Source: an uncultured Gammaproteobacteria bacterium (GTDB taxonomy: Bacteria; Pseudomonadota; Gammaproteobacteria; SURF-13). From it: 64,000 nt of DNA. The DNA lies in NCBI GenBank assembly GCA_947085325.1, contig CAMTVY010000010.1, positions 121,276 through 185,275 on the forward strand. Direction: 5' to 3'. This document shows, one piece after another, positions 26,420 to 58,302 of the stretch (position 1 is the stretch's first letter; every line of letters begins with the position of its first letter). The notes beneath the pieces were generated by a model, which did no database searches, was not told the DNA's origin, and saw only the letters and a list, made by a program, of their open reading frames with translations. The position numbers were made by a program, and so were the translations under genes.

Positions 26420-27364
26420 CTACTTGCGCAGTCCCAGCAGGATGGCCTCGGCGCGTGCGCCGAAATAAACGTATAACCCGAGGCCTACCAGCAGGCCCAC
26501 CGCGGTCAACATCATCCACACGCCCTGCAGTGTCTCCGCGCCGTTGTTCAAGGCGCCCTTGAACATCAGCATCAAGGCCTCGATGGAGACTGCAATCAGG
26601 ATCGCGGCGATGAAGCGGGTGATGGTGCGCCGGGTGGAACTGTGGCGGAGGATATCTTTCTGCATCAACACCTCTTCTTCCAGGATGGTCTTCCCCAGAT
26701 CGAAGATGGCGAGCGCCAGGGTTATGAAGATGATAACGCTGAACGGCTTGAGCTGTATGGCCTCGAGGGTATGTCCTGCCTGAAACAGGGTGGCGAGATC
26801 GGTGAAGGCGGAATACAGCAGCACCGCCACCACGCTGAACAACCCGATCACAATCAGCGCATAAATGGATTTGAACACTGGTTGAAACCTGCTCCGCGAA
26901 CCGTCACCCATGAGAAATTCGATGGTCTTGGCCAGATCAACATCAAGCACCAGATAGCCTGTGGTTTGTGTGTGACTGTCATGGATTTTTATCACCGCCG
27001 TGATGCACAACTTTCTGCTGGCGTTGGATAAATAAGGATCGGTGACGGTGATCTGATTGTTGGCGCGCGCTTGAATAAAGTAAGGACGCTGGCTGCGATC
27101 CTTGCTCTTGCCGTCTTCGATGGCCTGCTTCCAGTAGGGGCTGGTGATGTTGTCACTGGTTTGCATGCCGCTGGCATCGAGAATATAGAGCAGGTCAACA
27201 AAACGATAGAGTTTTGCGAGTGACTGCATCGCCTTGTGTTGCGCCGTGGGGTCATCCATCAGGCACGGTTCCGCGATGCCGGTCAGGATGGAGGCCACCA
27301 TGTCCTGTACGCCTGCGCGATGTTCGTGATAACGCTCGATGACGTTAATGTAATTCATGGTCAA
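26420..27364 (-). CDS. hypothetical membrane protein: N-terminal cytoplasmic Cache/PDC-like domain plus four C-terminal TM helices
   Basis: No N-terminal TM or signal peptide. DPYLSNASRKLCITAVIKI resembles the Cache/PDC core motif. Four hydrophobic helices follow and no output domain is present. GC is lower than the flanks. Confidence 0.5.
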   Translation of the reverse strand: MTMNYINVIERYHEHRAGVQDMVASILTGIAEPCLMDDPTAQHKAMQSLAKLYRFVDLLYILDASGMQTSDNITSPYWKQAIEDGKSKDRSQRPYFIQARANNQITVTDPYLSNASRKLCITAVIKIHDSHTQTTGYLVLDVDLAKTIEFLMGDGSRSRFQPVFKSIYALIVIGLFSVVAVLLYSAFTDLATLFQAGHTLEAIQLKPFSVIIFITLALAIFDLGKTILEEEVLMQKDILRHSSTRRTITRFIAAILIAVSIEALMLMFKGALNNGAETLQGVWMMLTAVGLLVGLGLYVYFGARAEAILLGLRK

Positions 27365-27379
27365 CCCCGGTTATCCTGC

Positions 27380-28672
27380 CTAGAATTGAAAGTCGGCCTG
27401 TAGCCAGAATTTGCTCAAGTCGCGTGACAAGGTGAGATTGCGCGCCACGTTGGTGGCATTGGTGTCGCCGCTGTAGTCGGCATATTTGGCCAGCAGGGTG
27501 AGAGTCTTGTTCACCTTCTTGCTGGCTTGCAGGCCCAGCTCGCTGCCGTAGTCGTAGCCGCCGGTGTCGGAAGAATAGCGGTCGTAACGCGCGAGCCAGT
27601 GGATGCCCTTCCAGCTTTTTTCGAGGGTGACGAAAATATCTTGCAAGCCATCCCTGGGCGTGCCCAGGAACTGATCGGCCCAGCCGTTGAAGGCATGCCC
27701 TGTGGCAAACGGCGTGGCAAAGCCGTATACCCCGTCACCGCCCAATACTTCGTAGTTCAATTTGACCTGGACGGTCTTGACCTCGGCGCCCAGAACCAGA
27801 TTCCTGTAGCTGGCGTCGACGCTGCTTGCACCGTTTTTATAATCACTCTGATTGGCGTACTCCGCAGTGTAGAAAAATTTGGTGCCGCCTTCCGGCTGAT
27901 GCCAGCCGTCAAAACGCAGGCCCAGTGTTTTATTGGACGCGGTGACTGCAATTGGCTGCCCCGGCGCATAGTCCAGCAGGTAGGCATAGCCGATCAGGGT
28001 GCCGGGCTTGAAACCGCGATAGGCGATGTTCAAAAGCTCACCGTTGAGCCTGACGTCACCCTGGCTGCTATTCTGGCCGAAAATACGGTTGGCGTTGGTT
28101 ACGTGAGCAAAGAAGACGTTGACGTTATTGGTCACTGCGGACGTTGCGGAAAAGGCGTCGAATGTCTGTGAATTCTGCCGCCAGCCTACGCTGCCGATGA
28201 AGCGCTGGTTGTCGAGATTGATGATCTGCCGTCCGTACCTGATAGTGGTATCCGCAAGCAGCGTATCGGGGCCTCCTTTGTAACTGATAAAGCCCTGATT
28301 GATCTCGGTGCTCTCCGGATCGGCAACGGTGGGGTACTGGGTCAAGCCGTTGATGGTGTCGTTGTAGCGGTTGCTGCCGAGATTGCGGATGTCTTCAAAC
28401 TGCACAAAGACGCCGAAGCCCTTGAAGTCACCGGTGGCGTAGCCAAGCTGTGTGCGCAGGGTGAAGGCGCTGGCCTTGTCGGACTTGCCTTCCTGGGTGA
28501 CCGACTCGAAGCGCGGACGCAACTGGCCGGAGACCTTGCCTCCGGTAATGGCCTCAAGAAAGGCTCCCTCGGCATGAGCCGCCGGCGATACAAGCAGGCC
28601 CAGCAGGTGAATGAGGCCCACATAATAGACAGGTCTGCGCATGCGGTTTACGGATGGTGTGATGAAGTTCAT
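27380..28672 (-). CDS. outer-membrane porin, alginate-export (AlgE-like) family, adjacent to the nitrate-type ABC transporter
   Basis: Signal peptide ending AHA-EG. Alternating beta-strand pattern and a C-terminal aromatic residue (WLQADFQF). Family assignment is from motif resemblance only. Confidence 0.6.
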   Translation of the reverse strand: MNFITPSVNRMRRPVYYVGLIHLLGLLVSPAAHAEGAFLEAITGGKVSGQLRPRFESVTQEGKSDKASAFTLRTQLGYATGDFKGFGVFVQFEDIRNLGSNRYNDTINGLTQYPTVADPESTEINQGFISYKGGPDTLLADTTIRYGRQIINLDNQRFIGSVGWRQNSQTFDAFSATSAVTNNVNVFFAHVTNANRIFGQNSSQGDVRLNGELLNIAYRGFKPGTLIGYAYLLDYAPGQPIAVTASNKTLGLRFDGWHQPEGGTKFFYTAEYANQSDYKNGASSVDASYRNLVLGAEVKTVQVKLNYEVLGGDGVYGFATPFATGHAFNGWADQFLGTPRDGLQDIFVTLEKSWKGIHWLARYDRYSSDTGGYDYGSELGLQASKKVNKTLTLLAKYADYSGDTNATNVARNLTLSRDLSKFWLQADFQF

Positions 28673-28705: not shown

Positions 28706-29527
28706 TCAGGCGGCATGCCTGGCATGGCGCTGATAGAGAAATTTCAATACCTCACTGCGCAGGCTCGCGTAACGCGCATCTTCGGCCAGCGCCAAACGGT
28801 TGCGCGGACGCGGCAGGGCGATCTCCAGTACTTGCCCGATCGTGGCCGCAGGGCCGTTGGTCATCATGACGACACGATCGGAGAGCAGCACCGCTTCGTC
28901 CACGTCGTGGGTCACCATCATTACCGTGCAGCCGCTGGCCGCAACGATGCGCATCAGTTCGTCCTGCAGCAGTGCGCGTGTCAGGGCATCCAATGCACCA
29001 AAGGGTTCATCCAGCAGCAGCACCTTGGGTTGCATGGAGAGCGCGCGCGCGATGCCGACGCGCTGCTTCATCCCGCCCGAGATTTCGTGCGGATATTTAT
29101 GCTGCGCCTCCTTGAGGCCGACCAGGTCGAGCACCTGTTCGGTGCGCTCACGCAAACGCGGTTTTTTCTCGGTGCGGCCAAAGACGCGCTCCACCGCGAG
29201 GTACACGTTGCCGAAGCAGGTGAGCCAGGGCAGCAGCGAGTGATTCTGGAACACCACGCCGCGATCCGGGCCGGGCCCGGTGATCTCGCGCCCGTTGCAG
29301 AGCATGATGCCGCCGCTCGCCGGAGTGAGGCCCGCCACAAGATTGAGCAAGGTGGATTTGCCGCAGCCCGAGTGGCCAATAATGGAAACAAACTCACCTT
29401 GTTGAATCGCCAGGTTGATGTCGGTGATGGCCGTGTAGGTGCCCTGTCTGGTGACAAAGACCCGCTCTACATTTTCCAGTTGTATGAATTTTTTGTGCAT
29501 GGCTGTTCCTTTTGGGTCAACTGTCAA
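28706..29527 (-). CDS. ABC transporter ATP-binding protein, nitrate/sulfonate/bicarbonate (NrtD/SsuB/CmpD) family
   Basis: Walker A GHSGCGKST, signature LSGGMKQR, Walker B LLLDEPF. Confidence 0.85.
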   Translation of the reverse strand: MTVDPKGTAMHKKFIQLENVERVFVTRQGTYTAITDINLAIQQGEFVSIIGHSGCGKSTLLNLVAGLTPASGGIMLCNGREITGPGPDRGVVFQNHSLLPWLTCFGNVYLAVERVFGRTEKKPRLRERTEQVLDLVGLKEAQHKYPHEISGGMKQRVGIARALSMQPKVLLLDEPFGALDALTRALLQDELMRIVAASGCTVMMVTHDVDEAVLLSDRVVMMTNGPAATIGQVLEIALPRPRNRLALAEDARYASLRSEVLKFLYQRHARHAA

Positions 29528-30423
29528 TATTCAAAGCGTCTGGCGAGCATGAGCAGCGCCTGTTCGAGTAACAGACCGATGATGCCGACGACAAAAATGG
29601 CGATGATGATGTGCTCGACATTGAGATTGTTCCATTCGTCCCACACCCAGAATCCGATTCCCACGCCGCCGGTCAGCATCTCCGCCGCCACGATGACCAG
29701 CCAAGCCACACCGACGGACAGCCTGACCCCGGTCATCATGTAGGGCAGTACTGCGGGAAACAGGATTTTGCTGAATATCCTGAATTCCGACAGGTTCAAT
29801 ACGCGCGCAACATTGAGGTAGTCGACCGGCACCTTGGTTACGCCGACCGCCGTGTTGATGACCATGGGCCAGATGCTGGAGATGAAGATCACCCAGATCG
29901 CGGCGGGCTGCGCCTCCTTGAATACCAGCAAGCCGATGGGCAGCCACGCCAGCGGCGACACCGGGCGCAGCAGGCTGATGATCGGCGCCGTCATTTTGTT
30001 TAGAAAGCTGAAACGTCCGATCATGAACCCCAGCGGGATGCCGACCAGCGCCGCGAGACCGAAGCCCAGCCCGACCCGTTCGAGGGAGTGCAGGATATTC
30101 CAGCCGATGCCTTGGTCATTCGGCCCGTTGTCGTAGAAGGGATCGCTGAATAACTCGACGGCGGAGTGCCAGGTTTTCACCGGCCCCGGCAGCTGCGGAC
30201 TGTACTCGGCGAGCAGTGACCACCCCAGCAGGAACACGATCAGACCGAGCAGCGGCGGGATCGCCCCTTTGGCCAGCGCATCCATGCCGCCATACAGTGA
30301 GGCCGTCCAGTTTCGCGCAGCCGGCCGTTGGGCCACGTTCGGCGTGGGCTGCTGCACTGAACCGGCGGCGTCATTCCTGCTTATTGGGATGACGTCTTTT
30401 TTCGTCATGGGCACCACGTTCAT
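29524..30423 (-). CDS. ABC transporter permease, NrtB/SsuC family
   Basis: BPD_transp_1 permease fold. Start set at MNVVPMTKKD (ATG 30423), preceded by AAGGAGG-ctcccg. The ORF is open to 30504 but that would overlap the SBP gene. Confidence 0.8.
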   Translation of the reverse strand: MNVVPMTKKDVIPISRNDAAGSVQQPTPNVAQRPAARNWTASLYGGMDALAKGAIPPLLGLIVFLLGWSLLAEYSPQLPGPVKTWHSAVELFSDPFYDNGPNDQGIGWNILHSLERVGLGFGLAALVGIPLGFMIGRFSFLNKMTAPIISLLRPVSPLAWLPIGLLVFKEAQPAAIWVIFISSIWPMVINTAVGVTKVPVDYLNVARVLNLSEFRIFSKILFPAVLPYMMTGVRLSVGVAWLVIVAAEMLTGGVGIGFWVWDEWNNLNVEHIIIAIFVVGIIGLLLEQALLMLARRFEY

Positions 30424-30436
30424 CGGGAGCCTCCTT

Positions 30437-31708
30437 TCAGGCCTTGAGCTGGAAGCTTGCGGCATACTGTTTGGGATTTTTTCCGTCCCATACCGTGCCG
30501 TCAAACAAGGTGCTGCTGCGCAACGGCTCGGCCGGCACCGGGACCTTGAGTTGCTCAGCCGCCTGTTTGTATAAAGCGATTTGATTTATCTGACTCGCCA
30601 CGGCCAGATAATCCGGATCCTCGGTCAGCAAGCCCCAGCGTTTATGCTGTGTCATGAACCACATGCCATCGGATAGATAAGGGAAATTGACGCGGCCGTC
30701 GTTGTAGAATTTCATGTAGTCGGGATCGATCCAGGATTTGCCGAGCCCGTTTTCATACTTGCCCAGCATGCGGCCTTCAATCACCGGATCGGGCGCATTC
30801 ACGTAAGACTTGCGGGCGATGATCTTGGCGACCTGTGGGCGATTAGCGGTGGTGTCTATATATTTCGACGCCTCCAGCACGGCCATGATGAGCGCGCGTG
30901 CCGTGTTGGGATATTTCTGGACAAACTCCAGCGTGGTGCCCAGCACCTTTTCCGGGTGGTCTTTCCAGATGGCCTGCGTGGTGGTGGCGGTGAAGCCGAC
31001 CTGGTCGTAGATCGCGCGCGCATTCCACGGCTCGCCGACACAGTAGCCATCCATGTTGCCTACGCGCATGTTCGCCACCATTTGCGGCGGCGGGATCACG
31101 ATGTTCTTGACGTCCTTGTAAGGATGAATGCCGTGCGCCGCCAGCCAGTAGTTGAGCCACATGGCATGGGTGCCGGTGGGGAATGTCTGTGCGAAGGTAT
31201 ACTCGCTCTTTTCAGTATCAATCAGTTTTTTCAGGCTCGCACCATCCACGGCGCCTTTGTCCTTGAGTGCGTTCGACAGGGTGATGGCCTGGGCGTTGTG
31301 GTTGAGGCCCATCAGGATCGCCATGTCTTTTTTCTGGCCGCCGATGCCGAGCTGCACGCCGTAGATGAGGCCGTACAACACGTGCGCGGCGTCCAGTTCG
31401 CCCAGCATCAGTTTGTCGCGCACCCCGGCCCAGCTCGCCTCTTTGGTCACCGTCACGTTGAGGCCGTATTTTTTGTACAGGCCGAGCTCGCCCGCCATCA
31501 CCACGCTGGCGCAGTCGGTGAGAGGAATAAAACCAATCTTGAGATCGGTTTTTTCCGGTGCATCGGAACCGGCGGCATGCACGCGGCTGCTGAGACCGGC
31601 GGGCATCACGCTGTAGATGCTTGCGGCGAGCAGCGATTTCATGAATTCACGGCGCGTCGTGCCCGTAGTGCTGCCGGTGGGTAGTTCAGTCTGTGTGTCA
31701 TGCGTCAT
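30437..31708 (-). CDS. ABC transporter substrate-binding protein, NrtA/CmpA-like, Tat-exported
   Basis: Twin-arginine signal (TRREFMKSLLAASIYSVMPAGLSSRVHAAG), then an NMT1/NrtA-type fold. Confidence 0.85.
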   Translation of the reverse strand: MTHDTQTELPTGSTTGTTRREFMKSLLAASIYSVMPAGLSSRVHAAGSDAPEKTDLKIGFIPLTDCASVVMAGELGLYKKYGLNVTVTKEASWAGVRDKLMLGELDAAHVLYGLIYGVQLGIGGQKKDMAILMGLNHNAQAITLSNALKDKGAVDGASLKKLIDTEKSEYTFAQTFPTGTHAMWLNYWLAAHGIHPYKDVKNIVIPPPQMVANMRVGNMDGYCVGEPWNARAIYDQVGFTATTTQAIWKDHPEKVLGTTLEFVQKYPNTARALIMAVLEASKYIDTTANRPQVAKIIARKSYVNAPDPVIEGRMLGKYENGLGKSWIDPDYMKFYNDGRVNFPYLSDGMWFMTQHKRWGLLTEDPDYLAVASQINQIALYKQAAEQLKVPVPAEPLRSSTLFDGTVWDGKNPKQYAASFQLKA

Positions 31709-31742
31709 GGCAAAATCTCCTCATCAAGTTATACATAGCGCC

Positions 31743-31821
31743 AAAAAAAAGCGCCCATCCCGCAAGGATTGCTCCCGCAGAATGGACGCCGTTGTCCATG
31801 CGCAAGCCGGCATTGGCTTGC
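31743..31821 (-). promoter_or_regulatory. candidate ANTAR-responsive antitermination leader upstream of the nrtA-like gene
   Basis: In the RNA sense there are two adjacent 6-7 bp hairpins with hexaloops AAUGCC and AACGGC (A at position 1, G at position 4). They are separated by 2 nt, then about 30 nt of GC-rich sequence and a U8 tract 35 nt before the start codon. Confidence 0.55.
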
Positions 31822-31896: not shown

Positions 31897-32484
31897 TCAC
31901 ATCAATAATTCCGCCGCTGTAATGACCGTCTGCGCCACTTCCGTCATGCGCAGGTTGCGTGTCATGGCCAGCTTGCGCAGGGCTTGATAGGCCTCGTCTT
32001 CCGAACACTGGCGCTGTTTCATGACCATCCCCTTGGCGCGCTCGATCAGCTTGCGCTCCTCCAGCGCAGTAGTGGCCTTGGTCAACTCACCGCGCAGGGC
32101 CTGAAACTCCTGAAAGCGCGCGATGGCGACATCGATGATGGGTTTAATGCGTTCACTGCCGAGGCCGTTGACGATATAGGCGCTGACGCCGGCATGCATC
32201 GCGAGGCGAATATTTTCCTCGTCGCCGTCATGGGTGAACATCACCAGCGGCAGGTCACGACCGATACAGCACATGTGTTCCAGGGTGTCGCGGTCGGGTG
32301 ACTCCATGTCGATGATGATGACGTCCGGCTGAATCTCCGCAACGCGCGCGCGCAGGTCGTCATGGGGCGCGATGTGCGCGGCCACCGCATGGCCTGCCTG
32401 ACGCAAGGCCTGCTCCACTGCTCCGGCCCGGTGCGGGCTTTCATCCACCAGCAGCACACGTAACGCTTTAGACGGTTTATTCAT
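31897..32484 (-). CDS. nasT: ANTAR-domain response regulator (NasT/AmiR family antiterminator)
   Basis: CheY-like receiver (LLVDESP...DVIIIDMESPDRD...VMFT) plus a C-terminal ANTAR domain (ERKLIERAKGMVMKQRQCSEDEAYQALRKLAMTRNLRMTEVAQ). Start at MNKPSKALRVLLVDE; the longer ORF from 32580 would encode through a terminator hairpin. Confidence 0.85.
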   Translation of the reverse strand: MNKPSKALRVLLVDESPHRAGAVEQALRQAGHAVAAHIAPHDDLRARVAEIQPDVIIIDMESPDRDTLEHMCCIGRDLPLVMFTHDGDEENIRLAMHAGVSAYIVNGLGSERIKPIIDVAIARFQEFQALRGELTKATTALEERKLIERAKGMVMKQRQCSEDEAYQALRKLAMTRNLRMTEVAQTVITAAELLM

Positions 32485-32504
32485 ATTCAGCCGGGCGGCC
32501 AGCA

Positions 32505-32548
32505 GGTATAAAAAGAACCCACTCTCCGAGGAGAGGCGGAGAGTGGGT
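32505..32548 (-). terminator. intrinsic-terminator-like hairpin between the two ANTAR regulator genes
   Basis: In the RNA sense: ACCCACUCUCCG-ccucuccu-CGGAGAGUGGGU (a 12-bp perfect stem) followed by UCUUUUUA. It ends 21 nt before the nasT start codon. Confidence 0.5.
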
Positions 32549-32611
32549 GTGAGCACCAGACATGCGCCCCACATAGCCAACTGAAGTTATTCGCATCATC
32601 ATCGACCTGAT

Positions 32612-33193
32612 TCAAGCATGCGCCAGTAAACTCTGTTCCATGACGATGAAGTCCTGCGCTACATCCACGGTGCGTTTGTTGCGAGTCAGGGCGAGCCTGC
32701 GCAGCGCCTGCTGGGCGCCGTTCCGGGAGATGCGGGCTTTCTGCATGAGGATGGCCGCAGCCTGCCCTATAAGTCTGCGTTCAGCCGCAGTCGTGTGGGT
32801 CTGTTCCAGTTGATTGAGCAGAAGCTGTGTTTCATTGAAGCGGATGATGGCAACATCCATGATCGGCTTTACCCGCTCCGGCCACAGTCCATCGACAATA
32901 TAGGCGCTGATGCCGGCTTTCAGTGCCGCGTTGATAGTCGGCGCATCGCCCTGGCGGGTAAACATGACGATCGGGCATGGCTGGCCAAGATAAATGCGTT
33001 CAATCTGGCGCAGTTGCCTGTGACTAACGTGTTCCAGCGCAAACACCAGTATGTCGGCTTCAATGGTTTTGAGTGCGAGCTGTAGTTCCGGGATGCTGGT
33101 GACGAGCTCGACTATCTCGTGTCCATGCTTGTGCGTGGCGGACTGTAGCAGTTCCGCATCTTCTGCATTTTCCACGACTAGCGCGATGCGCAT
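32612..33193 (-). CDS. second ANTAR-domain regulator with degenerate (pseudo-)receiver domain
   Basis: ANTAR domain (AERRLIGQAAAILMQKARISRNGAQQALRRLALTRNKRTVDVAQ). Receiver-like N-terminus with Ala at the expected phospho-acceptor position (ILVFALEH vs IIIDME in the neighbour). Confidence 0.8.
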   Translation of the reverse strand: MRIALVVENAEDAELLQSATHKHGHEIVELVTSIPELQLALKTIEADILVFALEHVSHRQLRQIERIYLGQPCPIVMFTRQGDAPTINAALKAGISAYIVDGLWPERVKPIMDVAIIRFNETQLLLNQLEQTHTTAAERRLIGQAAAILMQKARISRNGAQQALRRLALTRNKRTVDVAQDFIVMEQSLLAHA

Positions 33194-33397
33194 GAAAGTC
33201 TCCCGATCAAGTGTTGTCGGGGAAGTATCAGCAATAGCCGTGCCAACCAGAGAAAGCGTATTATTTTCAGTGAATTAAAGGTTGTATGGTGCTCGGTCTG
33301 GGAACCGTTGCGCACCATTCTGCGTGTGTCAGGGAGCGAGTTGAATCATTTTGGGGCGGAATGTGTTCGTGCAGTCTTGCCCAAGGCTGCGCAGGCG

Positions 33398-33700
33398 TTA
33401 GTGGTACTTTAGCAGCCAGCTTCGGAATTCATCGGCGGGTAAGGGGCAGGAGAAGAAGTAGCCCTGTGCCTTGTCGCAACCGAGTGCAATCAGCCGGTCA
33501 AGAGTTTCCTGAGTCTCCACGCCTTCGGCCACGACTTGCAGGTTGAGGTTGTGCGCCAGCTCAATAGTAGAGCGTACGATGGCGGCGTTGTCGTCATCGG
33601 TTACCATGTCTATCACAAAAGACTTGTCCACCTTGATTTCATCTACCGGCAGCTTCTTGAGGTAACTCAGAGACGAGTAACCTGTGCCTAAGGTCGTCAA
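33398..33700 (-). pseudogene. 3' remnant of an EAL-domain (c-di-GMP phosphodiesterase) gene
   Basis: Encodes only the last ~100 aa of an EAL domain ([28 protein letters not shown]...VAEGVETQETL...) and lacks the upstream catalytic half. The frame hits a stop about 16 codons upstream, exactly where the prfC-3' copy begins. Paralogous to the C-terminus of the intact GGDEF-EAL gene at 33902-36157. Confidence 0.7.
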
Positions 33701-33901: not shown

Positions 33902-36157
33902 TTAGCGAAGCTCGAATTTGAACGTCTGTATCCGCTCCCAGCTCTGGACCAACCCGGCAAACTCATCGGCCGGGAGCGGCTTGCTGAAGTAGTAGCCTTG
34001 GGCCATGTCGCAGCCCTCCTCGCGCAGAAATTTGAGCTGCTCGAAGGTTTCCACTCCCTCCGCGATGACTTTCATGTTGAGCGTGCGGGCCATGGCGATG
34101 ATGGTCTTTGCTATCGCGGCATCATTGGGATCAGTGGCGATGTCACGTACGAAGCTGCGGTCTATTTTTAAGAAATCTATGGGACAGCGCTTGAGGGTAC
34201 TTAGGGATGAGTGGCCCGTACCAAAATCATCAAGCGAGCAGGACACGCCGTCCGCTTTTAGCGCCTCCAGGCACTGGATGGCATCCTCTGGGTCGCGCAT
34301 CAGCATGCTCTCGGTTAATTCAAGATCGAGTCTGGATGCCGCGAGGCCGCTCTCCTCGAGCGCCTTCCTGACCGTCCGCAGGAAATCTTTTTGTCGCAAC
34401 TGCCGGGCCGACACATTCACCGCTAGGCGCAGTGGGGGGAGGCCCATCTGCTGCAATATCCGTGTCTGCGCGCATGCAGCTTGCAGTACCCACGCGCCGA
34501 TTGGAGCAATCAGCCCGGTCTCCTCGGCCACGGGGATGAACTCCAGTGGCGTGATGAGTCCTTCCTCGGGTTGGTGCCAGCGCAGCAGTGCCTCCATGCC
34601 GATGATTTCTCCGGTACGGAGAACCACTATCGGCTGGTAGTGCAGCAGGAACTCTCCTCTCTCTAGGGCGCGGCGCAGACCGCTTTCCAGAGTCAGACGT
34701 CGGCTGGCACGGTCATGGAGATCGGGTGTGTAGAGTCTGAAGGTGTTACGCCCAGACTCCTTGGCATGATACATGGCGGTGTCGGCACTTTTGAGGAGCC
34801 CTTCCGCATCGTCTTCATCCAGCGGGTACAGGGTGATGCCGATGCTTACGCTCACATGTATCTCTCGGCCATCAACAATGAAAGGAAGATCCAGCAGCTG
34901 CTGGATCTTCCGAACCATACCGGCGACTTCGCCCACGTGATGAATCTCGGGGAGCACTATGGCAAATTCGTCTCCTCCGAGGCGGGCAATGGTATCACTC
35001 GCCCGGAGGCCGGTGCCGAGCTGCGTGGCTACCATCTTAAGCAGCTTGTCACCCGCGCTGTGTCCGAAGGTATCGTTGACATATTTAAAGTAATCGATGT
35101 CTATGAATAGCACGGCGACAATGTAATTCCCGCGGTCGGCATCGCTTATGATCTGCCGCAGGCGGTCATCAAGCAGCTGTCGGTTGGGAAGCCCGGTCAG
35201 AGAGTCATACAGCGCAAGCTGTTTGAGGCGCTCCTCGGCCTGTTTGCGCTCGGTGATGTCGCTCATGAGACAGTAGTGACCAGAGAAATTATTACGCTCG
35301 TCGTAGATTCCGACCATCACTGCATGCATGTAGAAAATCGAACCATCTTTGCGCAGTGCTCTGGCTTCCACATCCGCTTTTCCGCTCGCGCGCAAGCGCT
35401 GGTAGGCGGCCTGCATCAGGCCAAGGTCATCCGGCTGCACTGTCAGCGATCGCTCGGCGTCGATCAGGTCTTCTGGCGCGTAACCGACCATGTCGGCGTA
35501 GGACTTGTTGACCATACGAAAGCGCCCCTCTACATCCAGCCGCGCGATCCCCTCAACAGCATGTTCCAGTGCGGTGGCCGTTTCACGCAGCGCCTGTTCC
35601 ATCTTGGCACGTTCGGCAATCTCGGCGCGTAATAAATAATTTTGCTGTGAAAGGTGGAATGCGCGCGCGAGTTCCGCGCTGTACAATTCATGCTGTGCCC
35701 ACACAGCCAGCTCGTGCAGTGTGTCGAGTTGTGTCTGGTCCAGCTGGCGTGGGCGGTAGTCTGCGATGCACAAGGTGCCGATCCGGCTGTCGTTCGGTGC
35801 GCTGATCGGGAAGCCGGCGTAGAAACGGATATGCGGCGCTCCTGTCACCAACGGATTGTCAGCGAAGCGTTTGTCGAGCCGCGCGTCGGGAACGACCATG
35901 GCACGATCTCCCAGAATGGTGTGCCCGCAAAATGAAATACTGCGTGGCGTCTCGGAGGCTTGCAGGCCCTGGCAGGATTTGAACCACTGGCGTTCCGCGT
36001 CCACCAGGGTAATGAGCGCGATCGGTACATCGAACAGCCGGGTGGCGAAGCGCGTGATGCGGTCAAAGCGCTCCTCGGGAGGTGAATCCATGATGGACAG
36101 GGCATGAAGCGCGGCCAGCCTGATCGGTTCATCTGGCGGCAGCGGCGGTTCTTTCAT
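33902..36157 (-). CDS. GAF-PAS-GGDEF-EAL multidomain c-di-GMP signalling protein
   Basis: GAF (FDVPIALITLVDAERQWFKS), PAS, GGDEF (RLGGDEFAIVL), EAL (EALLRW...DDFGTGHSSLSTL). Confidence 0.9.
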   Translation of the reverse strand: MKEPPLPPDEPIRLAALHALSIMDSPPEERFDRITRFATRLFDVPIALITLVDAERQWFKSCQGLQASETPRSISFCGHTILGDRAMVVPDARLDKRFADNPLVTGAPHIRFYAGFPISAPNDSRIGTLCIADYRPRQLDQTQLDTLHELAVWAQHELYSAELARAFHLSQQNYLLRAEIAERAKMEQALRETATALEHAVEGIARLDVEGRFRMVNKSYADMVGYAPEDLIDAERSLTVQPDDLGLMQAAYQRLRASGKADVEARALRKDGSIFYMHAVMVGIYDERNNFSGHYCLMSDITERKQAEERLKQLALYDSLTGLPNRQLLDDRLRQIISDADRGNYIVAVLFIDIDYFKYVNDTFGHSAGDKLLKMVATQLGTGLRASDTIARLGGDEFAIVLPEIHHVGEVAGMVRKIQQLLDLPFIVDGREIHVSVSIGITLYPLDEDDAEGLLKSADTAMYHAKESGRNTFRLYTPDLHDRASRRLTLESGLRRALERGEFLLHYQPIVVLRTGEIIGMEALLRWHQPEEGLITPLEFIPVAEETGLIAPIGAWVLQAACAQTRILQQMGLPPLRLAVNVSARQLRQKDFLRTVRKALEESGLAASRLDLELTESMLMRDPEDAIQCLEALKADGVSCSLDDFGTGHSSLSTLKRCPIDFLKIDRSFVRDIATDPNDAAIAKTIIAMARTLNMKVIAEGVETFEQLKFLREEGCDMAQGYYFSKPLPADEFAGLVQSWERIQTFKFELR

Positions 36158-55890: not shown

Positions 55891-56864
55891 GATGATTTCC
55901 GCATGCTCACTTCGCCGGAATAATAACGCCGGATAACGCCATTCACCAACAGATTCAGTGCACCGTCGGCGGCAACGCCCTGGGCCACGCCATGCACGGG
56001 GCGCCCGCCATGGTCGAGTGTTACCCGCGTACCCTTGATGAGATCAAACTGTTCCCACTCCTGCATGAAAGGTGCGAGACCGTGCTGCTGGAATTCGTGC
56101 AAGGCCAGCAGCAGATGTTGCAGCAGCAGGCCGGCGAGGTGGTTGCGTGACGGCGCAGGGTCAAGCGCCGTGCGCATGTCCGCCCAGGGTTGATCCAGGG
56201 CAAAGACCGCCTGCGGTGGCATGGCGACATTGAGGCCAACGCCTGCGACCAGATGGCAGGGGCCGGTGACTTCACCCGCCATGTCGAGCAGGATGCCGGC
56301 CAGTTTGCGGCCCTGCCACAGGACATCGTTGGGCCATTTCAGCCCGGCGTTGTTGAGCCCGGCGGCGCGCAATGCCCGCATCACGCCTATGGCCACGGCG
56401 AGGCTGACGCCGCCGACGGCAGTGGGTGCCATACTAAAGCGCCATAGCAGCGAGAGGTAGATGTTCCCGCCCGGCGGCGATATCCAGGTACGCCCATGAC
56501 GGCCTCGCCCGGCGTGTTGCTGCTCGGCAAAACAGGCCGTGCCGCCCGGTGTGCCGCTGCCGGCCTGGCGCAATAAATAGATATTGGTGGAGTCGATCTC
56601 GTCCAGGATATCGATGTTGCCAAGCAGTCGCAGTGCCGACGGGCTGAGCGCCGCACGTATCGCGGTCTCATCCAGCGCCTCGATGGGGTGGGCAAGGCGA
56701 TAGCCGCGACCGGGCACGGCATGTATCTCGTGGCCGAGGCTGCCGAGCTGGCGGATTTCCTTCCATATCGCGCTGCGGCTTACGCCCAGGCGCAGCCCCA
56801 GCGCAGTGCCGGAGTGGAAGTGGCCGTCACGCAGCATATCCAGGAGTTGTCGTTTCTGGCGCAT
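55887..56864 (-). CDS. birA: bifunctional biotin-[acetyl-CoA-carboxylase] ligase and biotin operon repressor BirA
   Basis: N-terminal HTH (GTALGLRLGVSRSAIWKEIRQL) plus the BPL catalytic motif GRGRHGRTWISPPGGNIYLS. The ORF is open to 56882. Confidence 0.9.
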   Translation of the reverse strand: MRQKRQLLDMLRDGHFHSGTALGLRLGVSRSAIWKEIRQLGSLGHEIHAVPGRGYRLAHPIEALDETAIRAALSPSALRLLGNIDILDEIDSTNIYLLRQAGSGTPGGTACFAEQQHAGRGRHGRTWISPPGGNIYLSLLWRFSMAPTAVGGVSLAVAIGVMRALRAAGLNNAGLKWPNDVLWQGRKLAGILLDMAGEVTGPCHLVAGVGLNVAMPPQAVFALDQPWADMRTALDPAPSRNHLAGLLLQHLLLALHEFQQHGLAPFMQEWEQFDLIKGTRVTLDHGGRPVHGVAQGVAADGALNLLVNGVIRRYYSGEVSMRKSS

Positions 56865-56967
56865 CACGGCCCAGTGTAGCAAAATAGGAATAGCGGGTTA
56901 TATTAAGCAGCGGGTTGCGAGTAGTCGGCGGGCGGGTGCAGCCTGTGCAGCACAATTTTGGAGCGCT

Positions 56968-58302
56968 ATGCGTCAGGTCTGGATAAATGAATTTTGGCGG
57001 TTGACCGGGGTCGCGTTCGTCGCGCTCTTGATCGGGCTGATTGCCGACAACGTACTGCTGTTTATGTTGCTCGCGGCGCTGGGATATCTCGGCTGGCATT
57101 TCATTAATTTGCGGCGGTTGCAGCGCTGGCTGATGGAGAGCGAGGATGCCTACCCTCCGGTTTCGAGCGGGATATGGGATGCGACTTTTAACGATCTGGG
57201 GCGGTTGCAGGCGCGTAACAGCAAGCGCAAGCGCAAACTGACGCGTATCCTCACCCGGTTTGAAGACGCCGCTGCAGCGCTGCCCGATGCCGTGGTGGTG
57301 CTGGGGTTGAATGCCGAAATCGAATGGTTTAACAATGCAACGCAAGAACTGCTGGGCCTGCACTGGCCGCAAGACGTCGGTCAGCGCATTACCAATCTGG
57401 TGCGGCATCCGCAGTTTATCGAGTTTCTTGCGGCGAGCGACTACTCCGGCGGGATAGAGCTGGCGGCGCCCGCCAATGCCGAGGTGATGCTGGCGGCACT
57501 GATAGTCCCGTACGGCAACTCGCGGCGCCTGCTGGTGGCGCGTGACATCACGCACCTCCGCCGCCTTGAGCAAGTACGCAGCGACTTTGTCGCCAATGTG
57601 TCGCACGAGCTGCGCACGCCGCTTACCGTGATCAACGGTTTCCTCGAAACAGCGAATGAAGCGGCGCCGGAATGCCCGCCCGGCTGGCAGCGTCCGTTAC
57701 AACTGATGCGGCAGCAGGCGCAGCGTATGCAGAATATCGTGCAGGATCTGCTGCTGTTGTCACGGCTGGAGATGGAGCAGCCGTCGCTGATGGGGAGTGT
57801 GGTAGTGACCGGATTGCTGGAGGGTGTGGTTCAGGAGGCGCGGGTATTGAGTGGCGCACGTAGCCACACTATTCAGCTCGACGCCGATCCTGATCTTGGC
57901 CTGCGTGGCAATGAAGATGAGTTGCGCAGCGCGTTTTCCAACCTGGTGTTCAATGCCGTGCAATATACACCGGAGCACGGGGCGATCCGCGTGCGCTGGT
58001 TCCGCGATGCGGCGGGCGCCCACCTCGTGGTGAGCGACACCGGTGTGGGTATCGCCAACCACCATATCCCGCGGCTGACGGAGCGCTTTTACCGCGTAGA
58101 CACGGGCCGCTCGCGCCAGAGTGGCGGCACCGGCCTCGGTCTTGCCATCGTCAAGCACGTGCTCAATCGGCATGACGCCCAGTTGCATATCGAGAGCGAG
58201 CAGGGCAAGGGCAGTACCTTCCGTTGTGATTTTCCGCTCACGAAGCTGGTACATCTGGCAGGCACGCAACAGCATGTGAGTGGTGACGCGCACAACGTTT
58301 GA
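56968..58302 (+). CDS. phoR: PhoR-like phosphate regulon sensor histidine kinase
   Basis: TM, charged HFINLRRLQRWL segment, PAS, then HisKA (FVANVSHELRTPLT) and HATPase (DTGVGI...GGTGLGLAIVKH). Closely parallels E. coli PhoR. The ORF is open from 56806. Confidence 0.85.
   Translation: MRQVWINEFWRLTGVAFVALLIGLIADNVLLFMLLAALGYLGWHFINLRRLQRWLMESEDAYPPVSSGIWDATFNDLGRLQARNSKRKRKLTRILTRFEDAAAALPDAVVVLGLNAEIEWFNNATQELLGLHWPQDVGQRITNLVRHPQFIEFLAASDYSGGIELAAPANAEVMLAALIVPYGNSRRLLVARDITHLRRLEQVRSDFVANVSHELRTPLTVINGFLETANEAAPECPPGWQRPLQLMRQQAQRMQNIVQDLLLLSRLEMEQPSLMGSVVVTGLLEGVVQEARVLSGARSHTIQLDADPDLGLRGNEDELRSAFSNLVFNAVQYTPEHGAIRVRWFRDAAGAHLVVSDTGVGIANHHIPRLTERFYRVDTGRSRQSGGTGLGLAIVKHVLNRHDAQLHIESEQGKGSTFRCDFPLTKLVHLAGTQQHVSGDAHNV

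Follow-up and report, generated by a model that had tools for sequence, protein, structure and literature searches.

A NasT paralogue lacking RNA-reading residues precedes nasT in a predicted nitrate-uptake locus of uncultured Gammaproteobacteria

Results

Two adjacent receiver-ANTAR genes in a nitrate-uptake locus

We analyzed a stretch of 64,000 nucleotides (64 kb; hereafter the window) of contig CAMTVY010000010.1, from an uncultured Gammaproteobacteria bacterium, in which two neighbouring genes encode proteins with a receiver and an ANTAR domain. One of them is nasT (31897-32484, minus strand), which codes for a NasT-type ANTAR antiterminator of 195 amino acids, and the other, directly upstream (32612-33193, minus strand), codes for a 193-amino-acid paralogue of NasT that we call P2. 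Both open reading frames (ORFs) were confirmed on the minus strand at these coordinates. Read along that strand, the locus consists of a sigma-54-type element, P2, a hairpin with a U-run (T1), nasT, a leader of 188 nucleotides, nrtA, nrtB, nrtD, a porin gene and a gene that we call Cache-4TM, the span from nrtA through Cache-4TM covering 31708-26420. P2 is predicted to join an aspartate-less pseudo-receiver and a long linker helix to an ANTAR fold without base-reading residues; NasT has the acceptor Asp and all RNA-contact residues, and lacks the receiver Lys. Related loci used for comparison are given by L numbers.

Searches with Pfam profiles placed the ANTAR domain of both proteins above the cutoff of 27.3 bits (76.6 bits for NasT, 37.7 bits for P2) and Response_reg above its cutoff of 30.2 bits in NasT only (39.5 bits, against 18.6 bits in P2). 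The two proteins could be aligned end-to-end over 190 residues with 37% identity and 2 gap positions (E 4e-41), and together these results bore out the description of the genes as a tandem pair of receiver-ANTAR regulators, made earlier from the DNA letters by eye (the sequence-only reading). In the alignment, P2 A52 (LVFALE) lies opposite the phospho-acceptor D59 of NasT (IIIDME), and V7-E8 opposite the acidic pocket residues D14-E15, the conserved receiver Thr being retained in both proteins. All 12 P2-clade sequences have Ala at the acceptor column; the assignment of P2 as an AmiR-like pseudo-receiver thus did not stem from a by-eye misalignment. At the end of beta5, in the column of the Lys of the KP motif, P2 has D101 and NasT an Asn, EutV having K-P. 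The receiver of NasT, which had been called canonical, is so with regard to Asp59, but carries Asn in place of the conserved Lys, and under the definition given in preprint 10.1101/2025.06.23.661182 both P2 and NasT would be pseudo-receivers.

The AlphaFold2 model of P2 (mean predicted local distance difference test score, pLDDT, of 87.4) has a (beta-alpha)5 domain, a long helix (residues 105-130) and three C-terminal helices (136-153, 157-170 and 175-192), that is, the expected succession of receiver, helix and ANTAR domain. The best full-length matches of this model in Foldseek were EutV, Rv1626 and AmiR (E 4e-7 for AmiR). As to NasT, public automatic gene calls begin the protein 30 codons earlier (225 amino acids; extension at 32484-32574, minus strand), across the terminator hairpin; we prefer the 195-amino-acid form starting MNKPSK, since the additional 30 codons fall outside the frame in L029 and are unconserved.

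P2 lacks the residues with which ANTAR domains read RNA

Contacts between the ANTAR domain and RNA have been identified by a crystal structure of EutV with RNA together with mutagenesis (PMC8934654), and mutagenesis of NasR showed some of these positions to be essential, including the aromatic W362 (PMC7496416). RNA binding further needs the loop N173/R175/R177 of EutV (PMC8934654) and R340, R366 and N373 of NasR (PMC7496416). Positions R142, K149, E160, Y164, R168 and M172 of EutV and R340, W362, R366 and N373 of NasR were mapped onto the two proteins. The set of residues expected of a functional ANTAR domain is present in full in NasT; P2 keeps the equivalents of R142, R168 and N373 and, when aligned to EutV, shows the replacements K147 to Q, K149 to A, E160 to R, Y164 to Q and M172 to L. 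Because it fails this comparison of RNA-reading residues, P2 should, on its predicted sequence, not be classed as an antiterminator. The earlier statement that P2 shares the ANTAR domain with NasT holds for the fold and the Pfam match, but not for the residues that read RNA.

To provide a baseline, P2 was scored against 1.84 billion representative proteins, and the key columns were tallied in the 149 best matches. The acceptor column holds Asp in 58 of these relatives and A, N, E, G, S, V, K and others in the remaining 91, and the column of the receiver Lys holds Asp in 113 and Lys in 2, leaving 147 without it. With so many relatives lacking one or the other, the dead receiver, on which the sequence-only reading had put its main emphasis, is not special to P2; an Asp-less or otherwise atypical receiver is the rule in the NasT-like family and hence ordinary. 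The RNA-reading columns are nearly uniform in the same relatives: Lys at the equivalent of EutV K149 and Glu at that of E160 (147 of 149 each), Tyr or Phe at that of Y164 (141) and Met at that of M172 (140). The representative of the P2 clade is the only one of these nearest relatives in which the Lys, the aromatic residue and the Met are jointly absent, and the loss of RNA-reading residues is the most distinctive feature of the locus.

Inside the P2 clade the lost positions are variable, with A, E, V or T at the Lys site and Q, H, R, S or A at the aromatic site, a pattern that fits relaxed constraint and not a new specificity. P2 keeps the basic positions R139 and R165 and the invariant loop R171-N172-K173-R174, the net charge of its ANTAR domain (+2 to +7) is as in relatives, and two residues that are invariant specifically in the clade, Q144 and L169, lie on the RNA-facing side.

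The P2 clade is rare and its coding sequence is conserved

Among 5.8 billion sequences, the P2 clade comprised eleven clusters at 90% identity (at 54-100% identity) that form essentially one 50% cluster. It is thus rare, and is known only from uncultured Gammaproteobacteria. Pairwise ratios of nonsynonymous to synonymous divergence (dN/dS) were 0.11-0.25 for P2, and the NasT encoded next to it gave 0.09-0.18. The 11 clade sequences share 54 invariant columns, and the P2 reading frame is intact in seven lineages. At the protein level, the rate of change of P2 has been 2-6 times that of NasT (window vs L005, 81% identity for P2 and 96% for NasT; window vs L020, 54% and 79%). Taken as a coding sequence, P2 is under purifying selection and does not have the features of a pseudogene. 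Synonymous divergence between the window (31897-33193) and L005 (10001-11296) was 0.68 for P2 and 0.16 for nasT, a difference that points to a breakpoint of recombination between P2 and nasT.

The closest relatives of P2 outside the clade (P0012, P0013 and P0159; about 40-43% identity) have Glu at the acceptor position and an intact ANTAR domain. They are followed by the local NasT group, the NasT of the window ranking 7th of 166, and this order fits an origin of P2 from an old duplication of a NasT-type gene. P0012, P0013 and P0159 may represent a constitutively "on-like" NasT lineage ancestral to P2.

P2 lies directly upstream of nasT in the window and in L005, L020/21, L028, L029/30 and L032, followed by nrtA wherever the contig reaches that far. 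Two other situations were found. In L022 (10001-11637), a P2 that is 84% identical to that of the window and its hairpin are joined straight to Cache-4TM; the nasT-nrtABD-porin block is absent, and a HigB/helix-turn-helix toxin-antitoxin pair lies downstream. In L026/27, the same chromosomal slot (fumC ... prfC) holds a degenerate sigma-54-type element, a P2 remnant, a hairpin without U-run and then nasT, leader, nrtABD, porin and Cache-4TM genes. The remnant, of 29 codons (L026 4577-4666, identical in L027), begins MRVVVVVEDADYAEPLL and reads MRVVVVVEDADYAEPLLLAAKKYAQAGAG up to its stop, so that L026/27 represents a natural P2 knockout lineage. By this distribution, P2 is ancestral to the group; it usually accompanies nasT, and at least one lineage can do without it.

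We examined 93 further NasT-like loci, drawn from genomes and metagenomes, and saw no second ANTAR gene in any of them; the tandem ANTAR arrangement is the rare part of the locus. A metagenome scan with the P2-clade alignment used patterns that are family-wide, so that 79 of 80 loci were ordinary NasT-like ones, and it was reused as a baseline and not as a source of new P2 cases.

A sigma-54-type element precedes P2, and a conserved hairpin separates it from nasT

A putative sigma-54-type promoter, TGGCACGGCTATTGCT (33230-33245, minus strand), with -24 GG and -12 GC, was found 37 nucleotides upstream of the ATG of P2. It fits TGGCAC-N5-TTGCW exactly, and a search of the window that allowed 1 mismatch gave no other site; the match alone is not significant, 1.6 matches being expected at this tolerance. 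The element is kept in position in L005, L020, L022, L028, L029 and L032, and is degenerate in L026. Farther upstream lies a conserved element, GCAGAATGGTGCGC (33310-33323, minus strand), and blocks of the form ...ATGGTGC... stand equally far upstream in L005, L022, L028, L029 and L032. The consensus of NtrC is TGCACC/GGTGCA; judged by it, GCAGAATGGTGCGC is possibly a pair of NtrC-type enhancer half-sites. A scan of the window found no sigma-70-like site on the minus strand within P2, and the gap between T1 and the ATG of nasT leaves no room for a promoter. Consequently nasT must be read through T1, and P2 would outnumber NasT.

T1 itself is an intrinsic-terminator-like hairpin (32508-32548, minus strand) with a 12-bp stem and an 8-nucleotide loop, CCUCUCCU, followed by UUCUUUUU. 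Folding and a terminator scan placed the stem at 32548-32517, with TTCTTTTT behind it and the ATG of nasT about 23 nucleotides away, and so confirmed the terminator-like hairpin that had been noticed between the two genes. Across five distinct sequences, 6 of the 12 pairs showed compensatory changes and 98% of cells were paired, a level reached in 0 of 500 shuffles. The loop CCUCUCCU is invariant among the hairpins of the window (32517-32548), L005 (10641-10680), L020 (10605-10640), L022 (10627-10666), L026 (4718-4752) and L032 (965-999); it is also complementary to the Shine-Dalgarno-like AGGAGA, including a copy ahead of P2. The U-run is present in the window, L005, L029, L022 and L020, and absent in L032, where P2 is intact, and in L026, where P2 is lost; the hairpin as a whole is absent in L028 despite an intact P2. 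As an RNA structure T1 is conserved, but it takes the form of a terminator in some loci only and its link to P2 is not strict, so that its conserved role would not be simply termination.

Three other readings of T1 were rejected. The only candidate target for P2, it does not qualify as an ANTAR target, having no ANNGNN hexaloops. The joint loss of P2 and the U-run in L026/27 cannot be taken as a sign that P2 antiterminates T1, as L032 combines an intact P2 with a U-less hairpin. Finally, small ORFs in the window (32477-32602, minus strand), L005, L029, L022, L020 and L026 start near the stop of P2, cross the hairpin and finish where the next gene begins or just inside it. Those of the window, L005 and L029 stop 7 nucleotides into nasT, that of L022 forms an ATGA overlap with the start of Cache-4TM, and that of L020 starts at TAAATG and stops 3 nucleotides short of the nasT ATG. 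A leader peptide was discarded, since the ORFs use three different frames and their peptides are unconserved; the ORFs may reflect translational coupling or chance.

The nrtA leader carries a NasT-type target

The leader between nasT and nrtA contains a dual hexaloop ANTAR target (31782-31821, minus strand), made up of a first stem-loop, P1, GCAAGCC-AAUGCC-GGCUUGC, and a second (the P2 stem of the RNA, not to be confused with the protein), AUGGAC-AACGGC-GUCCAU. The 3' arm of the second hexaloop hairpin coincides with the 5' arm of the leader terminator T2 (31742-31790, minus strand; 17 pairs and U8), the hairpin part of which was located at 31790-31750 by terminator scan. A dual ANNGNN with stems of at least 6 bp and a terminator-like hairpin behind it occurs nowhere else in the window. 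The same design recurs in L005, L029, L020, L026, L028 and L008, where the P1 stem has undergone compensatory changes. Rfam models matched the leader below threshold only, with 23 bits for narK RNA (threshold 43) and 22 bits for P11/NalA (threshold 70), the latter being the NasT-responsive leader of Pseudomonas. NalA is treated as the NasT target in the work on P. putida NasT. In its layout, the nrtA leader is a textbook NasT target.

Transport genes and candidate sensors

The gene behind the leader, nrtA (30437-31708, minus strand; Pfam NMT1_2, 352 bits), is predicted to encode a periplasmic nitrate/nitrite-binding protein with a twin-arginine translocation (Tat) signal. Its start, MTHDTQTELPTGSTTGTTRREFMKSLLAAS...VHAAG, was read by eye as carrying the twin-arginine motif TRREFMK, followed by a hydrophobic core and, as AxA site, VHA|AG, and its best solved relative was the nitrate-binding NrtA of Synechocystis (2G29, 300 bits). 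A tblastn search of the window with NrtA returned this one copy, with its Tat motif, and no second NrtA-like gene in the 64 kb. Neither an AmiC-type nor a NasS-type gene was found among the scanned ORFs of the window, and the only HisKA/HATPase_c protein in it is PhoR-type (56806-58302), about 24 kb away, so that no cognate kinase lies near the pair. These searches upheld, within the window, the view of NrtA as a periplasmic transport component and the only protein of its kind, and that of a regulator pair with no kinase, NasS or AmiC partner nearby.

This absence of NasS, stressed in the sequence-only reading, was compared with the 93 other NasT-like loci, 52 of which have at least 2.5 kb of sequence downstream. 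In 25 of the 52, a signal-less NrtA-like gene (NasS) lies within about 130 nucleotides downstream of nasT. In 20, nasT is followed by nrtA, mostly with a twin-arginine motif, with no NasS between them and, in all but one, a spacer of 200-850 nucleotides; the last 7 have neither layout. Members of the NasS-less layout include L008, L036, L040, L053, L059, L065, L077, L080, L086, L099 and L101-L103, and such loci are on average closer to the NasT of the window (52% identity, vs 48% for the NasS-bearing type). The close relatives with a single NasT, L008 and L026/27, are also without adjacent NasS, the NrtA of L008 being 70% identical to that of the window. L056 and L067 have a signal-less NrtA-like gene about 3.9 kb farther downstream. 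A missing adjacent NasS is a recurrent architecture and not a quirk of this locus, and the puzzle of sensing, which stems from absence within 64 kb, would extend to the whole subfamily, as the 20 loci share it without P2.

The permease gene nrtB (longest ORF 29524-30504, with the true start probably later; Pfam BPD_transp_1) and the ATPase gene nrtD (28706-29527; Pfam ABC_tran) follow on the minus strand, in the same order as in L008 and L026. Next come a gene for an outer-membrane porin-like protein of the Alginate_exp family (27380-28672, minus strand; Pfam), also found after nrtD in L026/27, and Cache-4TM (26420-27358, minus strand), the final gene of the transcription unit, convergent with prfC and co-oriented with the porin gene about 20 nucleotides downstream of it. 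In the Cache-4TM protein, neither a signal nor a transmembrane segment precedes the N-terminal PDC/Cache-like domain, which is followed by four hydrophobic segments; there is no output domain. Its family has more than 1400 matches, with about 60% identity across Gammaproteobacteria and Nitrotoga, and in L023 and L024/25 its neighbours are unrelated genes, none of them of the ANTAR or nrt kind. Cache-4TM looks like a resident neighbour of prfC, as in L026/27, and not a dedicated nitrate sensor.

The remainder of the window is housekeeping (ligA, mutS, nusA-infB, truB, pnp, prfC, fumC, cysG, trpBA, accD, folC, birA, phoR and mfd), and the ORFs scanned in the 64 kb included none for a nitrate or nitrite reductase. 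Upstream of P2 lies a GAF-PAS-GGDEF-EAL gene (33902-36157, minus strand) and, between the two, a 100-amino-acid C-terminal fragment of an EAL domain (33398-33700, minus strand), which is only 56% identical to the C-terminus of that gene and hence a remnant of another EAL gene. The GAF-PAS-GGDEF-EAL gene is present upstream in the window, L005 and L022 and missing from L020 and L026, and is therefore no consistent partner. Although NasT of P. putida was reported to bind cyclic di-GMP (PMC10783516), a link to this second messenger through the GGDEF-EAL neighbour was rejected, because of the absence of the neighbour in L020 and L026 and because mapping of the cyclic di-GMP residues of P. putida NasT was unreliable.

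Discussion

A possible role of P2 as a partner of NasT

We tentatively favour the view that P2 modulates NasT by protein contact through mixed oligomers, which we hold to be possible, if somewhat short of probable. Nitrogen limitation would switch on one transcription unit, made up of P2, T1, nasT, the leader with T2 and nrtA-nrtB-nrtD-porin-Cache4TM, via NtrC and sigma-54 acting at the promoter ahead of P2; control of nas systems by nitrogen limitation through NtrC and sigma-54 has been described (PMC10783516). NasT would be the working antiterminator, binding the dual hexaloop, relieving T2 and letting transcription enter the nitrate-uptake genes. P2 would be an old, diverged copy of NasT in which the receiver-like fold with its alpha4-beta5-alpha5 face, the long linker helix and an ANTAR fold of three helices persist, and from which the acceptor Asp and the residues recognizing the flipped G of the RNA hexaloop have been lost. 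Mixed dimers or tetramers of P2 and NasT, formed through the conserved helix and face, would then set the amount of fully RNA-competent NasT. A negative effect of P2 would be the likeliest, since the target needs two competent ANTAR domains and mixed oligomers carry fewer, and P2 could be regarded as an "anti-antiterminator" derived from an antiterminator and present in excess over NasT because its gene lies ahead of T1. The genes and motifs, their conservation and synteny, the selection on P2 and the RNA structures are shown by the sequences; we infer the function of the promoter, the contact between P2 and NasT and its sign, and likewise whether nitrate is sensed or nitrogen limitation alone.

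The identity of P2 to its own NasT is 48-65% in beta4-alpha4-beta5 and 46-62% in the linker helix, vs 20-29% in the rest of the receiver. The two better conserved segments form the dimer contacts in the structures of AmiR, Rv1626 and EutV. A dimer of the ANTAR protein engages the two hexaloops (PMC8934654), and NasT of P. putida is tetrameric (PMC10783516). The heterodimer, which the sequence-only reading had put forward as one option, was judged reasonable, but several observations weigh against it. The same segments are kept family-wide in NasT and so are not specific to this pair. RNA binding by P2 may persist, given its basic, backbone-contacting positions. In L022, P2 is intact and under purifying selection (dN/dS of 0.11 vs the window) despite the loss of the nasT-nrtABD-porin block from the locus, and in L026/27 it has been reduced to a remnant with no obvious compensation, so that it is dispensable in some lineages. 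A variant in which P2 is a doubly disabled NasT copy occupying the regulatory place of NasS, and either poisons NasT dimers or senses a nitrogen signal with its pseudo-receiver, strikes us as distinctly unlikely; if true, the NasS-less NasT subfamily would gain a second, protein-level input.

Other explanations of the pair

If P2 still binds RNA, it might be a regulator with a changed target, maybe the CCUCUCCU hairpin, that controls read-through to nasT or stability of its message in a two-step antiterminator cascade. We consider this, the main rival view, unlikely, even though P2 keeps R139, R165 and the invariant loop, whose equivalents are needed for RNA binding in EutV and NasR, its ANTAR domain stays basic, and Q144 and L169 are fixed on the RNA face. 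T1 would suit such a role too, its loop being invariant and 6 of its pairs compensatory; the gap behind it is too short for a separate nasT promoter, and L022 keeps P2 and T1 as a unit ahead of a different gene. Yet the hairpin and the protein do not travel together: L028 has an intact P2 and no T1, L026/27 kept the hairpin when P2 was destroyed, and in L032 the hairpin next to P2 is U-less and offers no terminator to relieve. Moreover, the lost base-reading positions of P2 vary in the clade and have not been re-fixed. A positive role is conceivable if P2 serves as a decoy for an inhibitor or sensor of NasT, such as a remote NasS-type protein, and frees NasT under nitrogen limitation. P2 keeps the family-wide surface GxSAYIVDGL..ERVKPI and sits behind the sigma-54-type promoter and ahead of nasT, and control of NasT by binding of NasS is established in Paracoccus (PMC3795266) and Pseudomonas (PMC10783516); with no NasS in the window, and with the closest NasT relatives generally lacking an adjacent one, we see only a slim chance for it.

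It is just as doubtful that P2 is a decaying duplicate of little function beside a NasT that is not controlled by nitrate or is run by a remote kinase or NasS. The NasS-less layout without P2 in 20 of 52 loci, the loss of P2 in L026/27 and its 2-6-fold faster protein evolution are what such decay would lead one to expect; a dN/dS of 0.11-0.25 across lineages down to 54% identity, 54 invariant columns in 11 sequences and a frame intact in seven lineages are not. Lastly, the sequence-only reading had offered Cache-4TM as the nitrate sensor that signals to the ANTAR pair, and for this very little can be said. The gene is co-oriented about 20 nucleotides after the porin gene, the Cache/PDC-like domain is probably cytoplasmic, as no signal or transmembrane segment leads it, and in L022 it comes directly after P2 and T1. 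However, its family is large (more than 1400 matches across many lineages), occurs in L023 and L024/25 with neither ANTAR nor nrt neighbours and has no output domain or known link to ANTAR proteins, and here it seems just the gene beside prfC, as in L026/27; we regard its role as a sensor as hardly credible.

It is also possible that nothing at this locus senses nitrate and that the uptake operon answers to nitrogen status only; about four in ten NasT-like loci are without an adjacent NasS, and uptake genes that answer to nitrogen limitation only are one possibility for these as well. The practical reach of the finding is limited to a rare clade of uncultured Gammaproteobacteria, in which the unusual part is clear at the level of sequence and the function is inferred.

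Comparison with known systems

The locus resembles the NasS-NasT systems of Paracoccus denitrificans, Azotobacter vinelandii and Pseudomonas in its NasT-type receiver-ANTAR protein, in two ANNGNN hexaloops overlapping a terminator, in putative nitrogen control of the sigma-54/NtrC type and in the target, an operon for nitrate assimilation or uptake. Unlike in those systems, no signal-less NrtA-like NasS is found beside nasT or in the 64 kb, the neighbouring regulator is a degenerate NasT paralogue, and nasT is itself part of the presumed nitrogen-regulated unit, downstream of a terminator-like hairpin. With AmiR of the amidase operon of Pseudomonas aeruginosa, P2 shares an Asp-less pseudo-receiver in an ANTAR protein and a model that matches the AmiR fold, and AmiR is controlled by protein contact and not by phosphorylation. 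AmiR, however, is itself able to bind RNA and antiterminate, and the ligand sensor AmiC holds it, whereas P2 is without the base-reading ANTAR residues and the window has no AmiC-like gene. EutV of Enterococcus faecalis and Rv1626/PdtaR of Mycobacterium tuberculosis gave the best structural and sequence matches for the receiver-helix-ANTAR architecture, but they are true phospho-receivers that answer to the kinases EutW and PdtaS and keep the receiver Lys and all RNA contacts.

Heterodimers with a pseudo-receiver paralogue are known for WhiI/BldM and have been proposed for CmrT/CmrR (preprint 10.1101/2025.06.23.661182). In WhiI-BldM of Streptomyces and CmrT-CmrR of Clostridioides difficile, as suggested here, an atypical, non-phosphorylatable paralogue is thought to form a heterodimer with a related regulator; those proteins bind DNA and the output domain of the atypical partner works, whereas here the output is an RNA-binding ANTAR domain with degenerate recognition residues. 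In full-text literature searches (ANTAR with NasT/NasS, pseudo-receiver or heterodimer), neither a tandem nor a degenerate ANTAR paralogue came up. The known modes of control of ANTAR proteins are phosphorylation (EutV, PdtaR), a sensor fused to the protein (NasR) and a distinct ligand-binding protein (AmiC, NasS); if P2 acts on NasT as proposed, a fourth mode would be control of the regulator by its own degenerate copy.

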